From NCBI GenBank assembly GCA_027604505.1, contig JADIIX010000027.1, positions 1 to 64,000 of the forward strand: a stretch of 64,000 bases of DNA. Direction: 5' to 3'. Source of the DNA: Gonapodya sp. JEL0774. Lineage: Eukaryota. Positions 1 through 43,471 of the stretch are shown here, one piece after another. Both the position numbers and the translations under genes were made by a program. Position 1 is the stretch's first letter. Every line of letters starts with the position of its first letter. Below the pieces are notes generated by a model, which was not told the DNA's origin, searched no databases, and saw nothing but the letters and a program-made list of their open reading frames with translations.

Positions 1-143
1 CCTTGCGCACGATAATATTATTATTTACATAAGGTCATGTAAAATGTTGGTTTCTAGAGCACTGTGGTGATGTTACCCGTATGTTTATTAACTGTGGGTC
101 ATGACCTGCCGTTGGTGACCCATGACCCACAGTGCGCAGACTG
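1..143. mobile_element. Right end of a probable hAT-like DNA transposon (partial, continues beyond window start)
   Basis: Ends ...GACCCATGACCCACAGTGCGCAGACTG at 143, which reads CAGTCTGCGCACTGTGGGTCATGGGTC on the minus strand: a CAG-starting terminus with GACCC/GGGTC subterminal motifs as in hAT elements. It abuts the middle of an array unit. The other end is not in the window. Confidence 0.5.
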
Positions 144-1627
144 TGTGGTCAAGTCAACAAGATCCATTTGAAAGTGGAAAAACTACAGTGACAGGTTGTT
201 TGATCTACTGACTTCCGGGTTATGACACACTGCTTGTTGAGAGAGCAAGAACTCAGTGAAAAAGTAAAACAAAAGCAAAAAACAAAAAATTATAGCGACG
301 AGTAGTTTCGATCTACCGACTTCCGGGTTATGATGCACTGCTTGTTGAGAGAGCAAGAACTCAGTGAAACAGTAAAAAAACTTAGCGATGGGTAGTTTCG
401 ATCTACCGACTTCCGGGTTATGATGCCCTCTGTGGTCAAGTCAACAAGAGCTCATTTGAAAGTGGAAAAACTACAGTGACAGGTTGTTTGATCTACTGAC
501 TTCTGGGTTATGAGACACTGCTTGTTGGGAGAGCAAGAACTCAGTTGAAAAAGGAAAAGATATAGCGACGGGTAGTTTCGATCTACTGACTTCCGGGTTA
601 TGAGACACTGCTTGTTGAGGGAGCAAGAACTCAGTTGACAAAGGAAAAAAATTAGCGATGGGTAGTTTTGATCTACCGACTTCCGGGTTATGAGACACTG
701 CTTGTTGAGAGAGCAAGAACTCAAGTGAAAAAGTAAAACAAAAGTAAAAATTATAGCGACGGGTAGCTTCGATCTACCGACTTCTGGGTTATGAGACACT
801 GGTTGTTGAGAGAGCAAGAGCGAATTACAAAAAAAAAGAATAGCGACGGGTAGTTTCGATCTACCGACTTCCGGGTTATGACACGCTGCATGTTGAGAGA
901 GCAAGAACTCAGTGAAGCAGTGAAAAAATATAGCGACGGGTAGTTTCGATCTACTGACTTCTGGGTTATGATACACTGCTTGTTGAGAGGGCAAGAGCTC
1001 ATTTGTAAAAGTAATAAAATATAGCGACGGGTAGTTTCGATCTACCGACTTCCGGGTTATGATGCACTCTCTGGTCAAGTCAGCAAGCTCCATTTGAAAA
1101 AGGAAAAAGTATAGCAACAGGTAGTTTTGATCTACCGACTTCCAGGTTAATGGTTATGAGACACTGCTTGTTGAGAGAGCAAGAACTCAGTTGAAAAGGC
1201 AAAAATATAGCAACGGGTAGTTTTGATCTACCGACTTCTGGGTTAGGGTTAGCTGCTTGTTGAGAGAGCAAGAGCTCAGTGAAACAGTAAAAAAACTTAG
1301 CGACGGGTAGTTTCGATCTACCGACTTCCGGGTTATGATGCACTCTGTGGTCAAGTCAGCAAGATCCATTTGAAAAGGTAAAAACAATAGCGACGGGTAG
1401 TTTCGATCTACTGACTTCCAGGTTATGAGAAACTGCTTGTTGAGAGAGCAGGAGCTCATTTTGAAAAAGTAGAACAAAAGTAAAAATTTATAGCGACGGG
1501 TAGTTTCGATCTACCGACTTCCGGGTTATGAGACACTGCTTGTTGAGAGAGCTAGAACTCAGTGAAGCAGTGAAAAAATATAGTGACGGGTAGTTTCAAT
1601 CTACCGACTTCCAGGTTATGACATGCT
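144..1627 (-). repeat. Tandem array of 16 ~90-bp units, each containing the 3' half of initiator tRNA-Met
   Basis: Core TAGCGACGGGTAGTTTCGATCTACCGACTTCCGGGTTATGA (+) starts at about 186, 293, 383, 474, 563, 653, 754, 841, 931, 1022, 1112, 1208, 1298, 1388, 1491 and 1581 (spacing 87-107, mostly 90). Its reverse complement matches the anticodon loop through the discriminator of the tRNA at 2720-2795. Confidence 0.95.
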
Positions 1628-2696
1628 TAAAGCATCTACGATTCAGTTCGATTCCGATTCAATTTTAATCGATCGTGGCAAAATTTGCCAATCGAAAATC
1701 GACTGGGAATCGACCGAGTGGTGGCAATTGCGATGGGGGAATCGATCGCCTGAGGGGCGATTCCGATTCCCAAATCGACCCATCCCAGCGCAAAATGCAG
1801 TATTTCACCGACAAATCAATGTAAAATCGCTGCAATACATTGTAATGATTTTCAATCGGAGCTTTTCGGTGGCGTTATTGGAATCGTGAGTTGATTGAGT
1901 GGTGATGGGTTCAAGGGGTTGCAAGAGCGTCCGGAAACTCTTGGTTTGCGTCAACTGGCATAGCAACATCACGGAGTATCATGTCTGGTCACGGACAGTC
2001 TCCTACAACGCTGATGCAGCATCACAAACAGGCAATCATGTTCAAGTGACCTCCGGGTACTCTAGTTGTTGCTTTGGAAATTGAAGCAGGACACAAAAGG
2101 AGGAGGTGAGCAATGTGAATGAATGCTTTGGTTCCAAGTCTTCATTTACTGAAACTACAGTCTGTGTCTATCTCAAGTGGATGATGAAGGCAACAAGCAC
2201 ACTCGGGGCCTAAAGGGGACAATCTCAGTCTGAGTCACACCTCTTTTTACCATTTTAGAATAGTATCATAAATGTAAAGAAATGGGTGAATATTCCAGAT
2301 ATCAACTGCACCATGTGTCAATCAACAGTTTTGGTGACAGAGAACAGTGTGTGGCCTGGGTTTGTGGGATTATACTCACCACATAGCACACAGCACACAT
2401 CAAAGAGGGCATTCCCTGTTCCAAAATAGTGGCAGTTGCAAGATATTAAAAATGATATTTGAGTTAAAAGGGAAATTTGCGCTATTTTACTATCAAATTG
2501 AACCGAAATCGAGCCGAATCGAAAATTTTCTGCACACTGAACAAATCGAACCGAATCAATCGCAAAACCCAGGAATCGAATCAAAAATTGACCGAGTGGT
2601 AAAAATTTCGATTATTAATAGATTGTGGGCTTGGAAATCGCTTCGGAATCAATCGGGAGGTTGAAAATCGAATCGAATCGAATTGTAGATGCTTTA
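1628..2696. mobile_element. ~1.07-kb non-autonomous TIR element (hAT-like)
   Basis: Left end TAAAGCATCTACGATTC (1628) and right end GAATTGTAGATGCTTTA (2696) are inverted repeats. Dense AATCGA/TCGATT subterminal motifs at both ends. No long ORF and no target-site duplication seen. Confidence 0.8.
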
Positions 2697-2719
2697 CTCA
2701 TTTGAAAAAGAAAAAATTA

Positions 2720-2795
2720 TAGCGACGGGTAGTTTCGATCTACCGACTTCCGGGTTATGAGCCCGGCGCTCTGAGACCAGCTGAGCTACGTCGCA
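2720..2795 (-). tRNA. tRNA-iMet: Initiator-type tRNA-Met (CAT), full length, with atypical T1 and D-loop
   Basis: Minus strand TGCGACGTAGCTCAGCTGGTCTCAGAGCGCCGGGCTCATAACCCGGAAGTCGGTAGATCGAAACTACCCGTCGCTA folds as a cloverleaf: D stem GCTC/GAGC; anticodon stem CCGGG/CCCGG with three G:C pairs; loop CTCATAA; T loop ATCGAAA (A54/A60, eukaryotic initiator hallmark). An oligo-T tract follows. Confidence 0.88.
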
Positions 2796-2829
2796 CAACA
2801 AACTCGTTGAAAGCGTGAGCACTTTCAAG

Positions 2830-2840
2830 TATATATTTAT
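2830..2840 (-). promoter_or_regulatory. TATA-like element ~35-45 bp upstream of tRNA-iMet
   Basis: TATATATTTAT at 2830-2840. A similar TATACATATTT lies at the same offset (7710-7720) from the truncated tRNA copy. Confidence 0.45.
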
Positions 2841-2929
2841 TAAGCTTATGTAGTAACAGTCCTGGATTCCATTACCCAACTGCTGTTCTTGGAATTGGCA
2901 TCCTCCAATCCCCTATGAAGCTAGCATCC

Positions 2930-4432
2930 GCTCACCGGCGGAACCCACTTGAAAAGGAACCAAACCACTGGAAATAATGACCGGGATCTACGATGCCCCG
3001 GCACTGCTTGATGTTTTCGTCAATTCGTGGAGGGGGAGGTTCTGCGTGAAAGGACTGCCGACAGAGCAGGCGGGGCGAAACACACATGTGTAGATTCCGA
3101 CATGGACATGGATAGGAAGAAAACAAAACCTCCTGGAACCTGGACGAATCGTGTTTGGATAGAGGTGAGTGCTCGTTGGCTGCGATTCTGATTTACTTTC
3201 GAATATGCTTGACGCAGCTTCGCTTCATTTGAGTACAAATGCTCTACAACTCCACGCGAAGGACACCAGGTAGAGTCATCCACTTATGGCGGCAATTTTT
3301 CCTTCCCGTCTGTGCTCCCAGCGCACCCATTCACATTCCCCCATGGACAATCTGGGCCGTTACTTCAGTTGACAATATTGATTCCGTAATGAAAAGGTGC
3401 TCCGCGCAGGCAGAACACGCTTCCAAGCTGACCGTTTGTGCTGGATGTGAGTGAAACCCAGTGGCTGCATTCGTTTTGGTGTTTTACCGCCCGCGAGGAG
3501 TGATCATATGGTTCTATTCTTGCACTCAAAAGAATCACCTGCTACGAGAGATCAGGAGAAGCGACGACAAGATACGCGAAGACGAAAGAGGCATGGACGG
3601 GAAGAGCAAGGACGAGGAAACGTGAGGACTGGAGGAGCTAGGATAGGAGAAGCATGGGGGGAAGTAGTGAGGACGCGAGGACCGAGGACCGGAGACACAT
3701 GGACACAGGAGGGAGGACTAGAGAATTATGGACGGGAGGGAGCAGCGAGAACGAGTGAAACAAGGACAGGAGAAACATGGAGGTGGGGAGCGAGGACGGC
3801 AGAAACTACGACGATGGGAGGAACGACGACACAGAAACATGGACGGGAGAAGCGCCGAGCGAGGCGAAGAGGAGCTAGGACAAGCGAAACAATGACGGCA
3901 GAAGTGAGGACCGGGAGGTGTGAGGACGGGAGAAAACTGTACGGCAGGAGTGAGGACGGCGGAAGCGAAGACGAGAGGAGTGAGGACGACAGAAACGCGG
4001 ACCGAGAGGAGGGAGGACGGGAGGAAGGAGTAAGGACGAGGACCGGGGGGAGGACGGGAGAAACATGTACGGCAGAAGCGAGGACGGCAGAAGGAAAGAC
4101 GGGAGGAGTGAGGACGGCAGGACGCGGACCGAGAGGAGGGAGGACGGGAGGAAGGAGTGAGGACGAGGACCGGGGGGAGGACGGGAGAAACATGTACGGC
4201 AGGAGCGAGGACGGCAGAAGCAAAGACGGGAGGAGCGAGGACGGCAGAAACGGGGACGACAGGAGCGAGGACGGGAGAAACAAAGAATCAGTGATTTTAT
4301 AAAGCGCGGAGAAGCTTGTAGATATCGCAGACACATTTACATAAAGCAAATACTAATTGTACAATTATCTCTTAAATACACATGGTGGCGCGATTGCGAG
4401 CTATTGAATCGTGCCCATTGAGCTTGGTCAGT
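2930..4432. repeat. Direct repeat copy 1 (paralogous to 7822-9052), with expanded GA-rich minisatellite
   Basis: 2930-3790 aligns nearly base for base with 7822-8675. Weaker similarity continues to about 4432/9052. 3900-4280 contains many GAGGACGG(G/C)AG units. Confidence 0.9.
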
Positions 4433-4552
4433 TTCCAGTGCGGCGAATTCCTGTGCGGCGAATCGGCCAATGTTGGTGTGCCGTTCCTTCCACACACTCA
4501 CCACTCCACCACCAGAATCACCTTTTCAATCCCTCTTGCTGACGAAACCACA

Positions 4553-7342
4553 ATGAACAATCCGGTCAAGTACGATCCTTCTTACGACTGGGAAGGGGAG
4601 CCGGAACTCAGACGTCCACCCAGAGTCTATTCGCGGTCCGAGGTGGAAGAGCTGGAGAACAATGGGAATCTGGCGAATCCTCACGACGATGCCCCGATCG
4701 GCTACACCGGGCCTCCCACGTCGATTTCATCTCTTGGCACAAGGAGTTTCAAAGGCGTAGTGTACCATACTCCTCCGAGGAACCATCCTTCGTACCCGAA
4801 ACGGTGGTCCTGTATTGCGACACCCGAACCCGCTTCCAACTCTGAAACTCCCTCTCCTTTGAACGACGATCTCCAGTCAGACACATCTTCTGACTCAATT
4901 GGTGCTTCCAACTCGGACAATGGTGTTGAACAGGAACCCCCGCACGTTGGTGAGGAACTCCCCCAAAGATTTGTGTGGATCATTGACACCACTCACCAGT
5001 TTCCACGCCACTCTGACTTTTCCACACCCCAACCCCACACTCGCAACGTCCACAGACGACATGGATGTTGATGAACCCGAGTTTGCTCTCGACGATGAGA
5101 CGGAACAAATCGCTCAACTGCTCCAAGAAAGTGAAATCCGCTCGAGCGCGACACGTTTCGGTGAAGAAGCGTGTGCAGACGAATCGGAGGATGATGTTGC
5201 TGATGCGCCGCCTGCCGCCGCGTCTGGTCCAACTGGTGCTCGCAAACTGCCGGATTTCAGCACCATCACTTTGGACGAAATAGAAAACATGCGACGACTT
5301 CACAACTTGGTGATCTTTGAAAAAACTCGAGAGGCTCTTGATTCGCTCGAACCTCGTCCCTCACCCAGCGTCCTTCTCCAAATGAAAACGAGACTGCTCG
5401 CTTTGATTAAATGGCATGAAGAGAAATGCCCCGCGTGCACTGTTGAGGAGGCAAAGCATGTTTTCAATGTTGAGCGAAAGAACGATGCCGAATTTATCGA
5501 GTTGGCCAAGAAACAGTTCCCTCTGGACCGTGGGATCGTGTCCGTGTCACCTGGAATTCCGATCAGCCGTCACAAGTGTCTTCTTTCGTACCTCCCAATA
5601 TACGCGAAGCTCTTCCATTTTGACGATGTGATCGGGCCAGGGATACCCAGTCCAATCGAGGAACTTGACTCGTGCCACGCACCATCTTGGTCGTCAGCAG
5701 CAGCACATGTACTGGACCCTGTGTGGCATGGCCTTATTCACGCACCGAGCTTGCTTGCTCGGGCTGAAATGAATCTCGGGTACCAGCCTGTCGACTTGAT
5801 GAGGCCTCCGCTCACCATCACTGACGTGGCAAAGTACTCTGACTTGACCAAGAGTTTCACCAGTCGATTTGGGAACACCATAGAGAATGCGATACCTTCT
5901 CAAGCCGCTGTGAACTGGTCGTATCGTACGCAGATGGATCTCGAGTCCAAATCACCTGCTCTCTCCACTTTCTATTTTCAACGCACTGTGTGTGGGAGAT
6001 GGGGCAGGACGATGAAGGAGAAATTCCCACTGGGTACAGTCATTGTCGACATCAAGGATGTCTTGGAACGAGATCTCAAACAAGCTTTCGATCTGGCCAT
6101 CTCTCGCATGCCCGAGTCTGACCGGCAGGATGTTGTCCGTTACAAGCCAGAGTTTTTGGAAGGATATCAGCATGTTATTGCTATTTCTGAAACTTCAGCC
6201 TTTGTCAGCTCGGAAATGGAGCACCCTTGCGGTCCCATGGCTCGAGGTTCTTCTGGCGCTCCCTGGTCTATGCTCGCTTTGCACATTGGACGCTCTATTT
6301 TCCAAGTGGGAATTGTACCAAATCTGGACGGGCTATTGGGCATTGACGGCCAGTTTTCTGCTGGGAAATCTCACTACTTCACAATCTTGAGCGAGTTCAT
6401 CACCAAGTTGGAGCGGAGATCATCTGAACTGCTTGTTCAGATTGGCCGAACGACAAACAATGAAGACGATGTAGCTCGCTTGTGGAAACAATTTGAGCTG
6501 TTCACAAAGGAGCTAGGTGTGAGCAAGGAGAAGGCAAACAAAAGTGTGTTCACTTGGTTGATTTCTTCTACTGTCTTGATGTGGTTCGCTGCTTTGGTAT
6601 GCTTTTTTTTTTAACTCGCTTCTCTCTACCCTTTGTGCTTTTCGTCAGTTTTCCGTCTTGAAGGTCATGGTGCCCGTCATACTGGCTATCCTTCATGTGG
6701 CAAACATCGAACCCACCCCCAAGCTGCCCTTGATACCTCTCCTCAATCTTCTGCTCTCACTCCATCTTCAGGGTCCTCTCTTCCATTGAAATCACAACCA
6801 ATCTCCCATGTAGAAGCCCAACAGGCACTTGCGATTGTCAAATCAAACTCCCGATTCATGTCTTCCGCCAGCAAGTCTACAACGGCATTTCTCCAACAAA
6901 TGTGTGTCTTTGTGGATGAGAGGTTATCAGGTATTCCTACAGAAATTGATTCAGGCAAGTCATTCTGCTGCCTTTTTTTGATGCTGCACTGTGGACCTTA
7001 GTGTTTTCAACACTTAACCCCACGTACACAACAGAACTTCCGAATTTATTTGAGGGCCCTCCTGCATACTTCAAGTGTCCCACTCCAGGGTGTAATTCTG
7101 TCAAGATTCGTCGCCATTACTTTGACTTGTCTTGTCGCCATGTGTTCATGGTCCGAACAAATTGTCTGATTGCCAAAACGAGGACGAATTATAAGCTGGT
7201 CAGTACTCCAGGTACAGAACACCTGATTGTTACTAAAAAATCACGTTGGGACAAGTGGTGTCGGTTAGGGAAGTGTGGAGGTGCAACGGAGTGTTACAAG
7301 TGTGGGGAGAATCTTCCCCGTGAATGGTCAGGCAAAGGTTGA
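4553..7342 (+). CDS. Orphan spliced gene, unknown function, Cys-rich (zinc-ribbon-like) C-terminus
   Basis: ATG 4553. The GT-AG intron 4950-5055 joins the 4382 and 4899 ORFs in frame, giving a 1.5-kb open exon to 6596. A GC-AG intron from 6955 joins to a final exon with CPTPGC...CRH...CRLGKC...CYKC. The junction after 6597 is not resolved in frame. Confidence 0.6.
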
Positions 7343-7646
7343 GATTTCTTCTCGCTGATTTTCAAACAATAGATAATCAGTAATTGTTAGCTTTTGAATT
7401 TTGTACAACTTATACCAGCAAAATGGCAAATGTTCGCATAAGCATGCATGGACAAAATGCCAGTGTCCATGTCGATGACTCGATGTGGTGTCACTGTTGA
7501 GCCGGGCGACGCCAATAATTGATAATTGGAAAAAGAGTAGTTATTTCGTTCATATGACAGCAGTCTACTATTGTGGTATTTGACAGTAATCTACTGAATT
7601 GATACTCCATCTCGCTATTGTGCAGAAACCCCAACAATTCGATCTG

Positions 7647-7675
7647 CGGCGCTCCTCCAGCTGAGCTACGTCGCT
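7647..7675 (-). pseudogene. Truncated tRNA-iMet (5' half only)
   Basis: Minus strand AGCGACGTAGCTCAGCTGGAGGAGCGCCG is the acceptor 5' strand (canonical A1), D arm and start of the anticodon stem. It is followed by CAGATCGAA and unrelated sequence; no anticodon is present. Confidence 0.8.
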
Positions 7676-7821
7676 TTCCCCTTTGTTGCGAGAGAGGGAC
7701 CTTTTTGAATATACATATTTGGAAATTTCTATCGGCTGATGGGGACTCCTTCTGTCTGAAGTGGCGAGGTCACAGCTAGACGGTGAATGTGACTTTCCAC
7801 ATTCCCCCATCACAAGTGTCA

Positions 7822-9052
7822 GCTCACCGGCGGAACCCGCTCGAAAAGGAACCAAAACATTGGAAATAATGGCCTGGCTCTACGATGCCCCGGAACTGTT
7901 TGATGTTTTCGTCAATTCGTGGAGGGGGAGGTTCTGCGTGAAAGGACAGCGGACAGAGCAGGCGGGGCGAAACACACATGTGTAGATTCCAACATGGACA
8001 TGGATAGGAAGAAAACAAAACCTCCTGGAAGCGTGGACGAATCGTGTTTGGATAGAGGTGAGTGCTCGTTGGCTGCGATTCTGATTTACTTTCGAATATG
8101 CTTGACGCAGCTTCGCTTCATTTGAGTAAAAATGCTCTACAACTCCACGCGTAGGACACCAAGTAGAGTCATCCACTTATGGCGGCAATTTTTCCTTCCC
8201 GTCTGGGCTCCCAGCGCACCCATTCACATTCCCCCATGGACAATCTGGGCCGTTACTTCAGTTGACAATATTGATTCCGTAATGAAAAGGTGCTCCGCGC
8301 AGGCAGAACACGCTTCCAAGCTGACCATTTGTGCTGGATGTGAGTGAAACCCAGTGGCTGCATTCATTTTGATGTTTTACCGCCCGCGAGGAATGATCAA
8401 TTCTCGCACTCAAAAGAATCACCTGCTACGAGAGATCAGGAGAAGCGACGACAAGATACGCAAAGACGAAAGAGGCATGGACGGGAAGAGCAAGGACGAG
8501 GAAACGTGAGGACTGGAGGAGCTAGGATAGGAGAAGCATAGAGGGAAGAAGTGAGGACGCGAGGATCGAGGACCAGAGACACATGGACGGGAGGAGGGAG
8601 GACTAGAGAAATATCGACGGGAGGGAGCAGCGAGAACGAGTGAAACAAGGACGGGAGAAGCATGGAGGTGGGGAGTGAGGACGGGAGGAACGGTCACGGG
8701 CTTGCGAAACGTGGAGAGGGGAAACAATGACGGGAGGAGCGCTAAACCAGGCCCGCAGAAGCTATGGCAAGCGAAGCAAAGACGGTGGAAACATGGACGG
8801 GAACAGAGCGGAGCGACGCCTAGAGGAGCTAGGACAAGCGAAACAATGACGGCAGAAGTGAGGACCGGGAGGAGTGAGGACGGGAGAAGCGAGGACGGGA
8901 GAAACAAGGACATCATAATGCGCGGAGAAGGGTGCAGATATCACAGACACATTTACATAGAAGACCGAGCAAACAATAGTATACCTCTATCTATCAAATC
9001 TATGGTCGAGTGATTGCGAGCTATGGAGTCGTGTCCTTTGATCTTGGCCCGT
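7822..9052. repeat. Direct repeat copy 2 (paralogous to 2930-4432)
   Basis: Near-identical translated fragments in both copies (e.g. 3239..3454 vs 8132..8347). The minisatellite is shorter in this copy. Confidence 0.9.
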
Positions 9053-9881
9053 TGGTGGCAGGGAGGGACAGCAGGAATGCAGGAAGTCGTGTGTGGAGAA
9101 TTCACAAATCACACAGCTTGGATCAGGGATGGGAGGCAGCTCCAAGTGAACTGAGAAGTGCGAAATTGTGGTTAGATGACTTCTTAGCCGTGCTTGCTGG
9201 CTGGACTGCTTTAGGTCTTGTCCCAGACTGCCAAACGGAATATCAACACTGGTCCTGCAAGAGATTTTGGTCACTATGTAGTTCTAACTCATGATATACC
9301 TTCATCATTAATGTGCAAAGATGATGATGGAGATCTGTTGCCTGTTTACTTTGGCTCTGTCACGACTGTGTGGAGCTTCCAATTCAAAGCGACGACTTTC
9401 CCTGCAATTATGCGCACTTGAAGGCCCCGTGGATATCAGAATTACTAGTCTTATTTTCCCTTTTATGGTGGTTCTTGGCTTGCCGTTCTGTTCAGAACCT
9501 GGCGAACTAAGTATCTGTTGGGACGTTATGTACATGAGTGCTAGTTGCAAACCGAACTTCAATTCACCGTCTTTCACTCAATTGTGAAACTCACCAATTT
9601 GTAGCAGCTCTCCTTGCCCCGCTTTTAATCGTTTCTATGTCCATTAGCACAGTATATATTCCGTAGCAAGTAGCATGGCCCAGTGCATCCGCCATACTCA
9701 CAGCACCGACGCTCCAGACCTCCAGCTTTTCATTCGTACAAACTGAGGAAGGAAGCTCCGTTCGACTTGTGGGAATCTTATTGAATCGTTCAGGGTTGCT
9801 GTGATGCGTCAAGCTCAGCCTCACAGATGGTCCAGGTCGGTGGTGCTCCCTAACGTCTCCCGTTCCCAACTTCAATCCAAG

Positions 9882-34469: not shown

Positions 34470-35519
34470 AATTGTCGCTGCCTGCCAATATAGATATTCA
34501 AGTCATTCTTGGAGGTGAAGAGTGTAGGCTGATCTTCGTTTCCCAATGAATCAGGACAGGACCGGCGTTAGGGGCAGCCGGTTTATTGAACGCCACATGT
34601 CCGCACTCTACAGAATGGGCTGTGAAAGGTGTGGTACTTCCGCATATTGTGCTCCGACCCAGTGCGCACCAGGACACACAATTTCTGGACTGTCGGTTCG
34701 CATGGGACTATCCTCTCGTCACCAACAACTAAGTAATATACATACCGTATAGCGCCGTCGTCTCGCTATTCTCCAAAAACATCGCAAATCGCTATCACTC
34801 TTGCCAAATAAAAAACTACCAGAATACTTGCGTCGGGTTATACTGGTTACCGTCTCAGGAAGCACTGGACTGCTCAACCGGGAGTGCCGGCCAGACCGAT
34901 TTCGGGTCTTGCTCCGGATTCACAGAACCATAGCATGCTGGGTCATGTGATCGCGTGATGTGAGGAAGAAACATCATTGTTCTATTCCTCCTCAATCACG
35001 GTTTTCGGAAGAAGTTTTCGTTACTCAATCATCTTGCTGTGGCGTTTGTCTGCCATAAGGCAAAGGAGGTTCGCTATTGTTATTGGGTTGTGATGCGAGT
35101 ATGTATTATAGGAATTCCTGGGGACATTGGTGTTGGGAGGAGTGATGGTTGTTCTAGTGCGCTTATCAAAGAAGAATCAGTGACAAGATGTGACATTCAT
35201 TTGAAGTGCATGACATCGCGGACAGAAAATGAAGGTGTACAGAGTCCACCTGAATGTTTGGCAGGTTCAAGAAGTGTCCACAGCCGCCAGCCTTACCCCC
35301 TACAAACGAAGAGCAGACTAATATGTAATAAGAGCTTGCATGCCTAAATCAGTTTTGGGGGTCATAATGAAAATAATAAAGGACCTTCTTTCTTTTCGAT
35401 TTCAATCGTTTCTATGCTGTTTCCATTTGCATTCTCTCATCCGCTTCCACCTGTTCAGGTATCCAATTCCGTACCTGATCGCAGCAGATCGCTGAGCACT
35501 GCAACACAAATTGTCCACC

Positions 35520-42604: not shown

Positions 42605-43471
42605 GAACGTCGTTCCAACAATCAATGAAGTGCTGACTGAATTCCTGCAGCATACATTTAATACTGTGAAGAACAGCAAACGGGATTACAGATACAAATA
42701 GAAACATATATATTTTCGTAGTTAAAAATTTGCTTTCACCATAGATCTTTGGAGAATCCGGAGCACTGAGACCTGGGCATTTTCGGATGAGAAGTCCAGT
42801 GCTTTGTGAGACGGTAAACAGTAACTCGACGCAATTGTAGTGATATGCATATTACGAAGTCATTGGTAATGAGAGGATAGTCCTAGGCGTCCGATAGTCG
42901 AGAAATAGTGTGTCCTGGTGCGCGTTTGTCAACTCACCTGTGTATGAAGTTTTCCCACGAAGGTCGAAGGAGGGGCTGTATTCAAGGGTAGGAAGGTTAG
43001 ATCACTGGATACACATGGATCTTATGTCACGACATTTGTGGTGTTTCATGTAGTCATCATGATGAGTGAGTGACTAAGTGGGACCCACTTTCACTAGGCA
43101 TCCACTGTCAGCACCGGAATCACGGTTTTGTAGGAAAGTGAGCATGAGTGAAAGTGAAAGTGAGGGTGAGGGGGAGAGTGCTTAGCAGTTCAATGACGAA
43201 TGTTGCCTGATGCCAACGTACGAGCGCAGGGTGGACTCTGGTTGCCCATGTATGTGGGCAGGAAACAAGCGAGCCTTGGGTCCCACTTAGTCTGGTTTGG
43301 CAGACGTCAATGTTGGCAGATTTGGATGGGACCGAGTGCACATTGAAACCTCCGGCAAGCCTTTCTGCGTGAGGTGGGATGGGGGTTGCCCAACCAGCCT
43401 GGGGTCCCATTACCTGCGATCATGGTTTCGCATGTGCACATTATTGTCCAGACCACCCCCCACCCCCCCGG

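Follow-up and report, generated by a model that had tools for sequence, protein, structure and literature searches.

Our analysis of the 64-kb window (the whole stretch of DNA studied, 64,000 nucleotides of Gonapodya sp. JEL0774) revealed that a whole initiator tRNA gene is followed on the minus strand by 16 copies of its 3′ half, and that an orphan tRNA 5′ half lies upstream of it, with an intact antisense ORF between the two 5′ halves. Repeated insertion at the anticodon arm fits the locus better than decayed tandem tRNA genes or a minisatellite, because the leaders of the units do not align to tRNA 5′ halves, neighbouring units are no more alike than random, the halves are pristine outside CpG sites while their flanks have diverged, and the ORF nearby is recombinase-like. 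It is probable that the units are footprints of insertion, whether left by a nested element or by 90-bp circles. The best explanation that we can offer is tentative, being possible rather than probable: a ~5-kb mobile element may have inserted copy after copy at the tRNA-iMet anticodon arm, each of the 16 units being the downstream end of one such copy. A previous sequence-only reading had proposed iterative site-specific integration growing beside the gene much as a CRISPR array does; its insertion part is retained here, and the CRISPR-like growth is not.

The tRNA-iMet gene and its 3′ half array

A single tRNA-Met(CAT) was called by both ARAGORN and Rfam, at 2795-2720 of the minus strand. 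Its anticodon stem has three G-C pairs at the foot and its T-loop has A54/A60, both of which we take to be marks of an initiator. The gene had been described as intact. It is indeed whole, but it has a U1-U72 mismatch and three additional bases in the D-loop, and it is possibly a spare carried by the element or a chimeric gene. The features of this part of the window, in the order in which they are read on the minus strand, are as follows.

2796..2926, minus strand: spacer upstream of the whole gene, 131 nt
2720..2795, minus strand: whole tRNA-iMet(CAT) gene (ARAGORN and Rfam, 58.7 bits)
2697..2719, minus strand: T-rich trailer of the gene (19 nt) and the initial 4 nt of a leader, in the format of a unit
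1628..2696, no strand assigned: non-coding element of 1069 bp, bounded by perfect terminal inverted repeats of 12 bp and also carrying subterminal repeats
141..1627, minus strand: array of 16 units, each a 3′ half (from nt 32/33), a T-rich trailer of 16-37 nt, and a 30-nt leader of type A or B
Half starts of units 1-8, minus strand: 1622, 1532, 1429, 1339, 1249, 1153, 1063, 972
Half starts of units 9-16, minus strand: 882, 795, 694, 604, 514, 424, 334, 226

An anchor scan found 17 copies of the 3′ half, one in the gene and 16 in the units (1622 to 226), which together with the ARAGORN and Rfam calls confirms the initiator tRNA with 16 half copies noticed earlier. Fourteen of the 16 halves are near-exact and two (at 514 and 226) are degenerate, and Rfam called no tRNA in the units. 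The TRF score for the array was ~1000-1450. Identity with the gene resumes at U33 in eight of the 16 units and at C32 in six; the loops of the remaining two are altered, and the earlier claim of identity from the anticodon loop onward in every unit is corrected accordingly. The altered junctions lie at 1249-1256 and 1153-1160 (minus strand). One of them resembles two telomere-type hexamers and the other contains a short near-duplication of the anticodon loop. They could be repair scars at the cut site.

The sequence-only reading placed the units behind the gene. This order is borne out, but the 1069-bp inverted-repeat element parting the gene from unit 1 had been omitted. The element sits within the first leader, of which ~17 bases are absent, and no target duplication was seen at its edges. 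It is likely an unrelated non-autonomous DNA transposon.

Two leader types were distinguished, A (n = 12) and B (three whole and one cut off), which are 11-12 edits apart in 30 nt. All 12 leaders of type A are 30 nt long, the whole ones of type B are 30, 30, and 31 nt long, and the final 4-5 bases vary among units. The trailer measures 19 nt in 11 of 17 cases and retains a T-run of 4-9 in all 17. The period is 90 bp in nine of the 15 intervals and ranges from 87 to 108 bp overall. These regularities favour a different form of insertion, in which each unit would be a complete minimal element made of a 3′ half, a terminator, and a leader serving as the attP arm. Such units would leave the array as ~90-bp circles and insert again at the anticodon loop. 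The recombinase would then act in trans and come, most simply, from the family of the upstream ORF. The constant length of the leaders despite the edits between the two types agrees with such circles, as do the identical trailer types found at non-adjacent positions (see below), and lost element bodies would be unnecessary. It has been reported that Cre excises at 82 bp and not at 80 bp, its activity falling steeply below 94 bp, and that Flp does so at 74 bp (PMC4929723); a spacing of 90 bp is therefore near the known physical floor.

At the far end of the array, the last leader (type B) is cut off at ~141. An inverted repeat with a 12-bp stem (91-133) starts right past this point; it may mark one end of a further insertion by which the array was truncated. 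The array terminates 140 bp from the start of the window and repeats are prone to collapse, both of which would suit an assembly artefact affecting in part the order or number of the units or the upstream arrangement. However, collapse would not create the many private differences of the units in the pairwise table, and we regard an artefact as extremely unlikely.

Divergence and decay of the units

When the halves of 14 units were compared with the gene (the two degenerate units were excluded), changes were found at 19 of the 140 CpG positions and at 2 of the 350 positions outside CpG (p = 2e-9). We infer that the CpG changes are in-place decay of the methylation type. In nine type-A units with short trailers (36 pairs), differences amounted to 31% in the trailers, 13% in the leaders, and 0% in the halves at non-CpG positions. 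The short trailers comprise 11 distinct forms requiring ~38 edits in 19 nt, and they differ mainly by substitutions at constant length, not by slippage. Leader A, compared over its initial 24 nt, was changed in 13 of 288 cells, which is more divergence than in the halves (p = 0.001). Since the halves are near-unchanged outside CpG while trailers and leaders have diverged, the halves must have been constrained or refreshed as their flanks changed.

The spacers of neighbouring units were as similar as those in random order (p = 0.75). Trailers are identical in units 1 and 8 and in units 4 and 14, with no CpG change in common, as expected if their source was fresh. Units 13 and 16 have decay in common, and therefore some copying took place in situ. 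Units farther from the gene showed no more CpG decay than nearer ones (rho = 0.09, p = 0.75), a comparison of low power based on few events. The array had been called polarised, which is true of its layout but not of its age, and the lack of an age gradient leaves ordered CRISPR-like growth beside the gene unsupported.

The leaders of the five units tested did not align to tRNA 5′ halves (122-996 of 1000 shuffles scored as high). According to the sequence-only reading, alignable leaders would have meant decayed tandem tRNA genes, and such genes are hence disfavoured. Neither decayed tandem tRNA genes nor a neutral minisatellite fits: the leaders do not align to 5′ halves, the non-CpG divergence is uneven along the unit, and neighbours are no more alike than in a random order. 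The minisatellite in particular is a misfit because non-CpG positions of the halves are pristine beside ~31% trailer divergence and because adjacent units show no special likeness.

A further explanation is an old satellite. A single deletion or rearrangement would have produced a 3′ half unit that was amplified long ago, and gene conversion, with active tRNA-iMet genes as donors, would have kept its halves fresh since then; the upstream features (orphan half, both R repeats, and the ORF; see below) would belong to a separate segmental duplication or transposon. Conversion would then have to be frequent and limited to 42 bp, and the position of the orphan half beside a lineage-restricted multi-copy ORF would be mere chance. 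The leaders, moreover, can be aligned to neither 5′ half, neighbours are not more alike, and the trailers differ by substitution at constant length rather than by slippage. On the other side, the absence of an age gradient suits a satellite, a single decayed unit gave rise to both 13 and 16, and T-rich tracts mutate fast. The tRNA also contains a 5-nt internal repeat (nt 10-14 and 31-35), and the last 8 nt of the leader are loosely like its nt 1-8. Altogether, we consider an old satellite quite unlikely.

The upstream half gene, repeats, and candidate recombinase

The orphan 5′ half, the direct repeats, and the intact antisense ORF upstream of the gene are all absent from the sequence-only reading. 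They are listed below in minus-strand order.

7819..9053, no strand assigned: repeat R2, which ends 143 nt ahead of the orphan half
7647..7675, minus strand: orphan tRNA-iMet 5′ half (nt 1-29), broken in the anticodon stem, score 39
4553..7342, plus strand: ORF with introns, in antisense to the tRNA (P0001 in the NCBI gene models, 745 aa), candidate tyrosine recombinase
2927..4433, no strand assigned: repeat R1, a ~620-bp unique part and a 15-bp minisatellite, direct repeat of R2

The score of the orphan half compares with a maximum of 31 among 100 shuffles. This half lies 4.9 kb upstream of the whole gene and is joined to the ORF-bearing segment. It has A1, A20, and a D-loop of normal length, and the 5′ half of the whole gene is the less canonical of the two. 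Each 5′ half is preceded by a copy of R (1.2-1.5 kb), across a spacer of 143 nt at the orphan and 131 nt at the gene; these two spacers match in 75 of 151 aligned columns. R1 and R2 agree at 88% over 1105 bp, with 23 substitutions in 627 columns of the unique part. Our search of R showed no clear ORF and no credible Rfam match, and no copy of the antisense ORF follows R2. The 15-bp minisatellite of both repeats occupies 3558-4295 and 8442-8919, and a 127-bp higher-order repeat is present in R1.

Several other candidates were tried and rejected. R1 and R2 do not appear to be the LTRs of a retroelement, as neither a primer-binding site near either repeat for the tRNA 3′ end or a half-tRNA primer nor an RT or gag match was found. 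An intron-related split was discarded because identity resumes at nt 32/33 and not at 38. A likeness of leader A to the upstream flank of the orphan was reached by 0 of 300 local shuffles but by 30 of 100 window-wide ones, and was dropped. Two left-end echoes, an 8-nt match to the T-loop (386/2000) and an inverted echo of the 3′ end (369/2000), were not significant.

The ORF starts 1.8 kb upstream of the gene and is located between the orphan 5′ half and R1. No stops occur in its two long exons, and its predicted last exon (~7001-7342) is Cys-rich. Across 85% of its length, the ORF at 4863-6611 shows 100% identity to an NCBI hypothetical protein of Gonapodya sp. JEL0774. Gonapodya is a genus of early-branching aquatic fungi, and our Pfam analysis identified housekeeping genes of fungal type in the window (TRAPPC13, COG7, Sec10, a PDZ protease, and HOOK). 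Two paralogs of the candidate protein, 83% and 46% identical, were found on other contigs (9.4 and 16 kb) of the same organism. A profile search against 1.84 billion representatives returned only these two Gonapodya paralogs, no longer or shorter form turned up in searches for homologs, and phages yielded none.

Residues R447, H542-x-x-R545, and Y573 are conserved in P0001 and its paralog P0002, with Ile at the His/Trp position. The spacings from the first arginine to the histidine and from the histidine to the tyrosine are 95/31, versus 96/34 in lambda Int and 116/35 in Cre. The motif pattern, which was drawn after viewing the sequence, occurred in 2 of 5000 shuffles (the second box alone in 52 of 5000). 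The two motif boxes presumably resemble those of yeast Flp. For residues 195-660, the nearest named Atlas clusters were QRICH1/DUF3504, ALOG, and DUF3435 with scores of 0.81-0.83, which, being below 0.9, are leads only and were attained by a third of shuffled proteins. Nine of the ten best named Atlas matches belonged to one family or clan, and DUF3435 stood at rank 19 (score 0.81). A second Atlas search, restricted to residues 425-600, returned nothing usable. ALOG is of tyrosine recombinase origin. DUF3504 is described as descending from the Crypton tyrosine recombinase (PMC3212892), and DUF3435 as that of Starships (PMC10104507).

No tyrosine recombinase match was found in Pfam, PHROGs, or PDB sequences, no Pfam match to DUF3504, GCR1_C, or DUF3435 was obtained, and general family scans gave no DDE family match. 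AlphaFold models of the ORF had pLDDT values of 35 and 34 and were unusable, and Foldseek returned no match. Comparison with Cre and lambda Int by hhalign and pairwise alignment was blank, as was the control of Cre against Int. The signs of a tyrosine recombinase are weak; on balance we slightly favour the ORF being one. The earlier statement that no recombinase is visible in the window is doubtful, since this candidate lies at 4553-7342.

Just before the ATG of the ORF, 33 nt at 4520-4552 (plus strand) resemble an inverted trailer plus leader B. Nothing else in the window matched better, the array itself aside (score 37, attained by 1 of 100 shuffled queries), and it is possibly a putative recombinase binding site at the start of its own gene.

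Insertion models and comparison with known elements

Under the nested model, insertion would be carried out by the predicted tyrosine recombinase, and the element would likely carry a spare tRNA-iMet near its end. Read on the minus strand, the element would comprise a left end at 7646, the antisense ORF, R, the spacer, the whole tRNA, the 19-nt terminator trailer, and the 30-nt leader as its right end. Copy n+1 would land in the tRNA delivered by copy n. Bodies with their 5′ halves would thereby be stacked upstream, one whole gene would be kept in the middle, and stubs of 3′ half, trailer, and leader, each from a different element lineage, would be stacked downstream. The large upstream repeats would collapse, either by recombination in the genome or when the reads were assembled; the stubs of 90 bp would persist and decay at CpG sites. 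Nesting of different lineages would explain the conserved halves, the diverse trailers, the two leader types, and the two kinds of 5′ half.

Several observations stand against this model. There are one body and one partial body for 16 stubs, so that most bodies would have to have been lost or collapsed, and R2 has no ORF following it. The breakpoints differ, that of the orphan being after nt 29 and those of the units before nt 32/33, and no common overlap or target duplication between them was found. Inverted symmetry at the unit junctions is little (4-7 of 11). Nesting predicts an age gradient, which was not observed at the low power available, and it gives no reason for the near-fixed 90-bp period. 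A long element with the leader junction as its boundary was not directly seen in the window.

Little inverted symmetry and no age gradient also count against 90-bp circles. The ~90-bp minimal unit of the sequence-only reading is possible in view of the period; however, it leaves the orphan 5′ half and R1/R2 unaccounted for, and the ORF lies between two 5′ halves and not between a 3′ half and a leader. Taken as the origin of the array, the circles seem to us unlikely. They may operate on top of nesting once junctions are 90 bp apart.

A more specific proposal would be a new eukaryotic family of tyrosine-recombinase transposons, which integrates in the initiator tRNA anticodon arm and supplies a spare that keeps the gene working. 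It would leave behind or generate units of 90 bp, at the looping limit of the recombinase, so that the locus would tally at least 16 integrations. We hold this to be rather doubtful. If true, it would add a recombinase family with a conserved eukaryotic target and a eukaryotic counterpart of tRNA-targeted genomic islands. The unproven circular mechanism of the Crypton type would become testable on a 90-bp substrate, and tRNA half arrays would be usable as markers to find such elements.

The locus works like a tRNA-targeted integrative element, and its features do not place it among Cryptons, Starships, Dada, or prokaryotic islands. Bacterial genomic islands rely widely on site-specific integration in which the tRNA gene is restored. 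The whole tDNA and the displaced fragments are all in the same orientation at our locus. The Islander account describes a comparable layout, with the gene regenerated, the fragments displaced, and tandem arrays formed, the tRNA genes there being split in the anticodon loop region; among 3919 islands there are 125 tandems of at least two and 4 of at least three (PMC4383910). Our locus differs in its eukaryotic host, in the 90-bp spacing of its 16 fragments, between which neither integrase nor cargo lies, and in having a displaced 5′ half and displaced 3′ halves both at one gene. The members of prokaryotic tandems have their own integrase, whereas the units of 87-108 bp have none. The candidate recombinase is found on the 5′ side, and no integrase profile matches it.

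Cryptons are described as elements with a single tyrosine recombinase ORF and no terminal inverted repeats, and occur in fungi (PMC3212892, PMC13565253). Our locus is similar, with a single candidate recombinase ORF, no terminal inverted repeats, and a fungal host, and the nearest Atlas clusters are Crypton-derived (DUF3504 and QRICH1). However, it has no Pfam match to DUF3504 or to the GCR1_C of CryptonF, and the 4-6-bp terminal direct repeat was not found at the element ends, which are themselves inferred. tRNA targeting and gene restoration do not figure in the Crypton accounts drawn on here (PMC3212892, PMC13565253). Crypton transposition is without experimental demonstration, according to what a 2026 review states on the point (PMC13565253).

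Starships are likewise fungal elements with a tyrosine recombinase, some families of which hit 5S rDNA (Pol III), and the passages cited report nested and tandem insertions (PMC11162782, PMC10104507). The element proposed here differs in having no Pfam match to DUF3435, the family of the captain that stands first in a Starship, a length of ~5 kb, no cargo seen, and a host that does not belong to Pezizomycotina. Insertion of a Starship is said to disrupt the 5S rRNA and not to restore it (PMC11162782), and circular Starship intermediates are reported in a preprint (10.64898/2026.09.21.753150).

Dada transposons insert around the tRNA anticodon in antisense. They have introns, are free of terminal inverted repeats, at times substitute the target bases on one side, and are known from a fungus (PMC3706591, PMC8869645). 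A Dada-like DDE transposon that targets the anticodon arm could have left the stubs by nested or one-ended transposition. Our locus does have a eukaryotic tRNA insertion near the anticodon, with an antisense, intron-bearing ORF with a Cys-rich end. However, Dada has a DDE transposase and 6-7-bp target duplications (PMC3706591, PMC8869645), and neither was seen here, at the junctions or in the family scans. The Atlas leads at 0.81-0.83 point instead to families derived from tyrosine recombinases, and the 1.84 billion representatives contained no relative outside this organism. Neither arrays of 3′ halves nor target restoration is described for Dada in the portions of the literature cited (PMC3706591, PMC8869645). 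We regard a Dada-like origin as very unlikely.

The eukaryotic elements on Pol III genes that we found in the literature are Dada (tRNA genes) and Starships (5S rDNA). A literature search covering openly readable papers and few of those under subscription returned no eukaryotic tyrosine recombinase element that restores a tRNA gene. A survey of cryptophyte polinton-like viruses found tRNA genes to be absent from their insertion sites (PMC12220804). A metagenome scan for the tRNA 3′ half without its anticodon stem gave 0 matches, as did a scan of viral contigs. A looser metagenome pattern gave four matches, all of them whole tRNA-Met genes from other organisms without arrays.

Two further observations were made. 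An inverted repeat of ~200 bp in pieces (80-91%) lies at 34664-34888 and 42776-42923, ~8 kb apart, around host-like genes in the window; it could represent copies of a MITE, or a large element could end at these two places. Three metagenome contigs of 3.8-6 kb (L002, L003, and L004) contain 19-28 different eukaryote-type tRNA genes, closely packed in both orientations, and the same tRNA cluster recurs across three samples.
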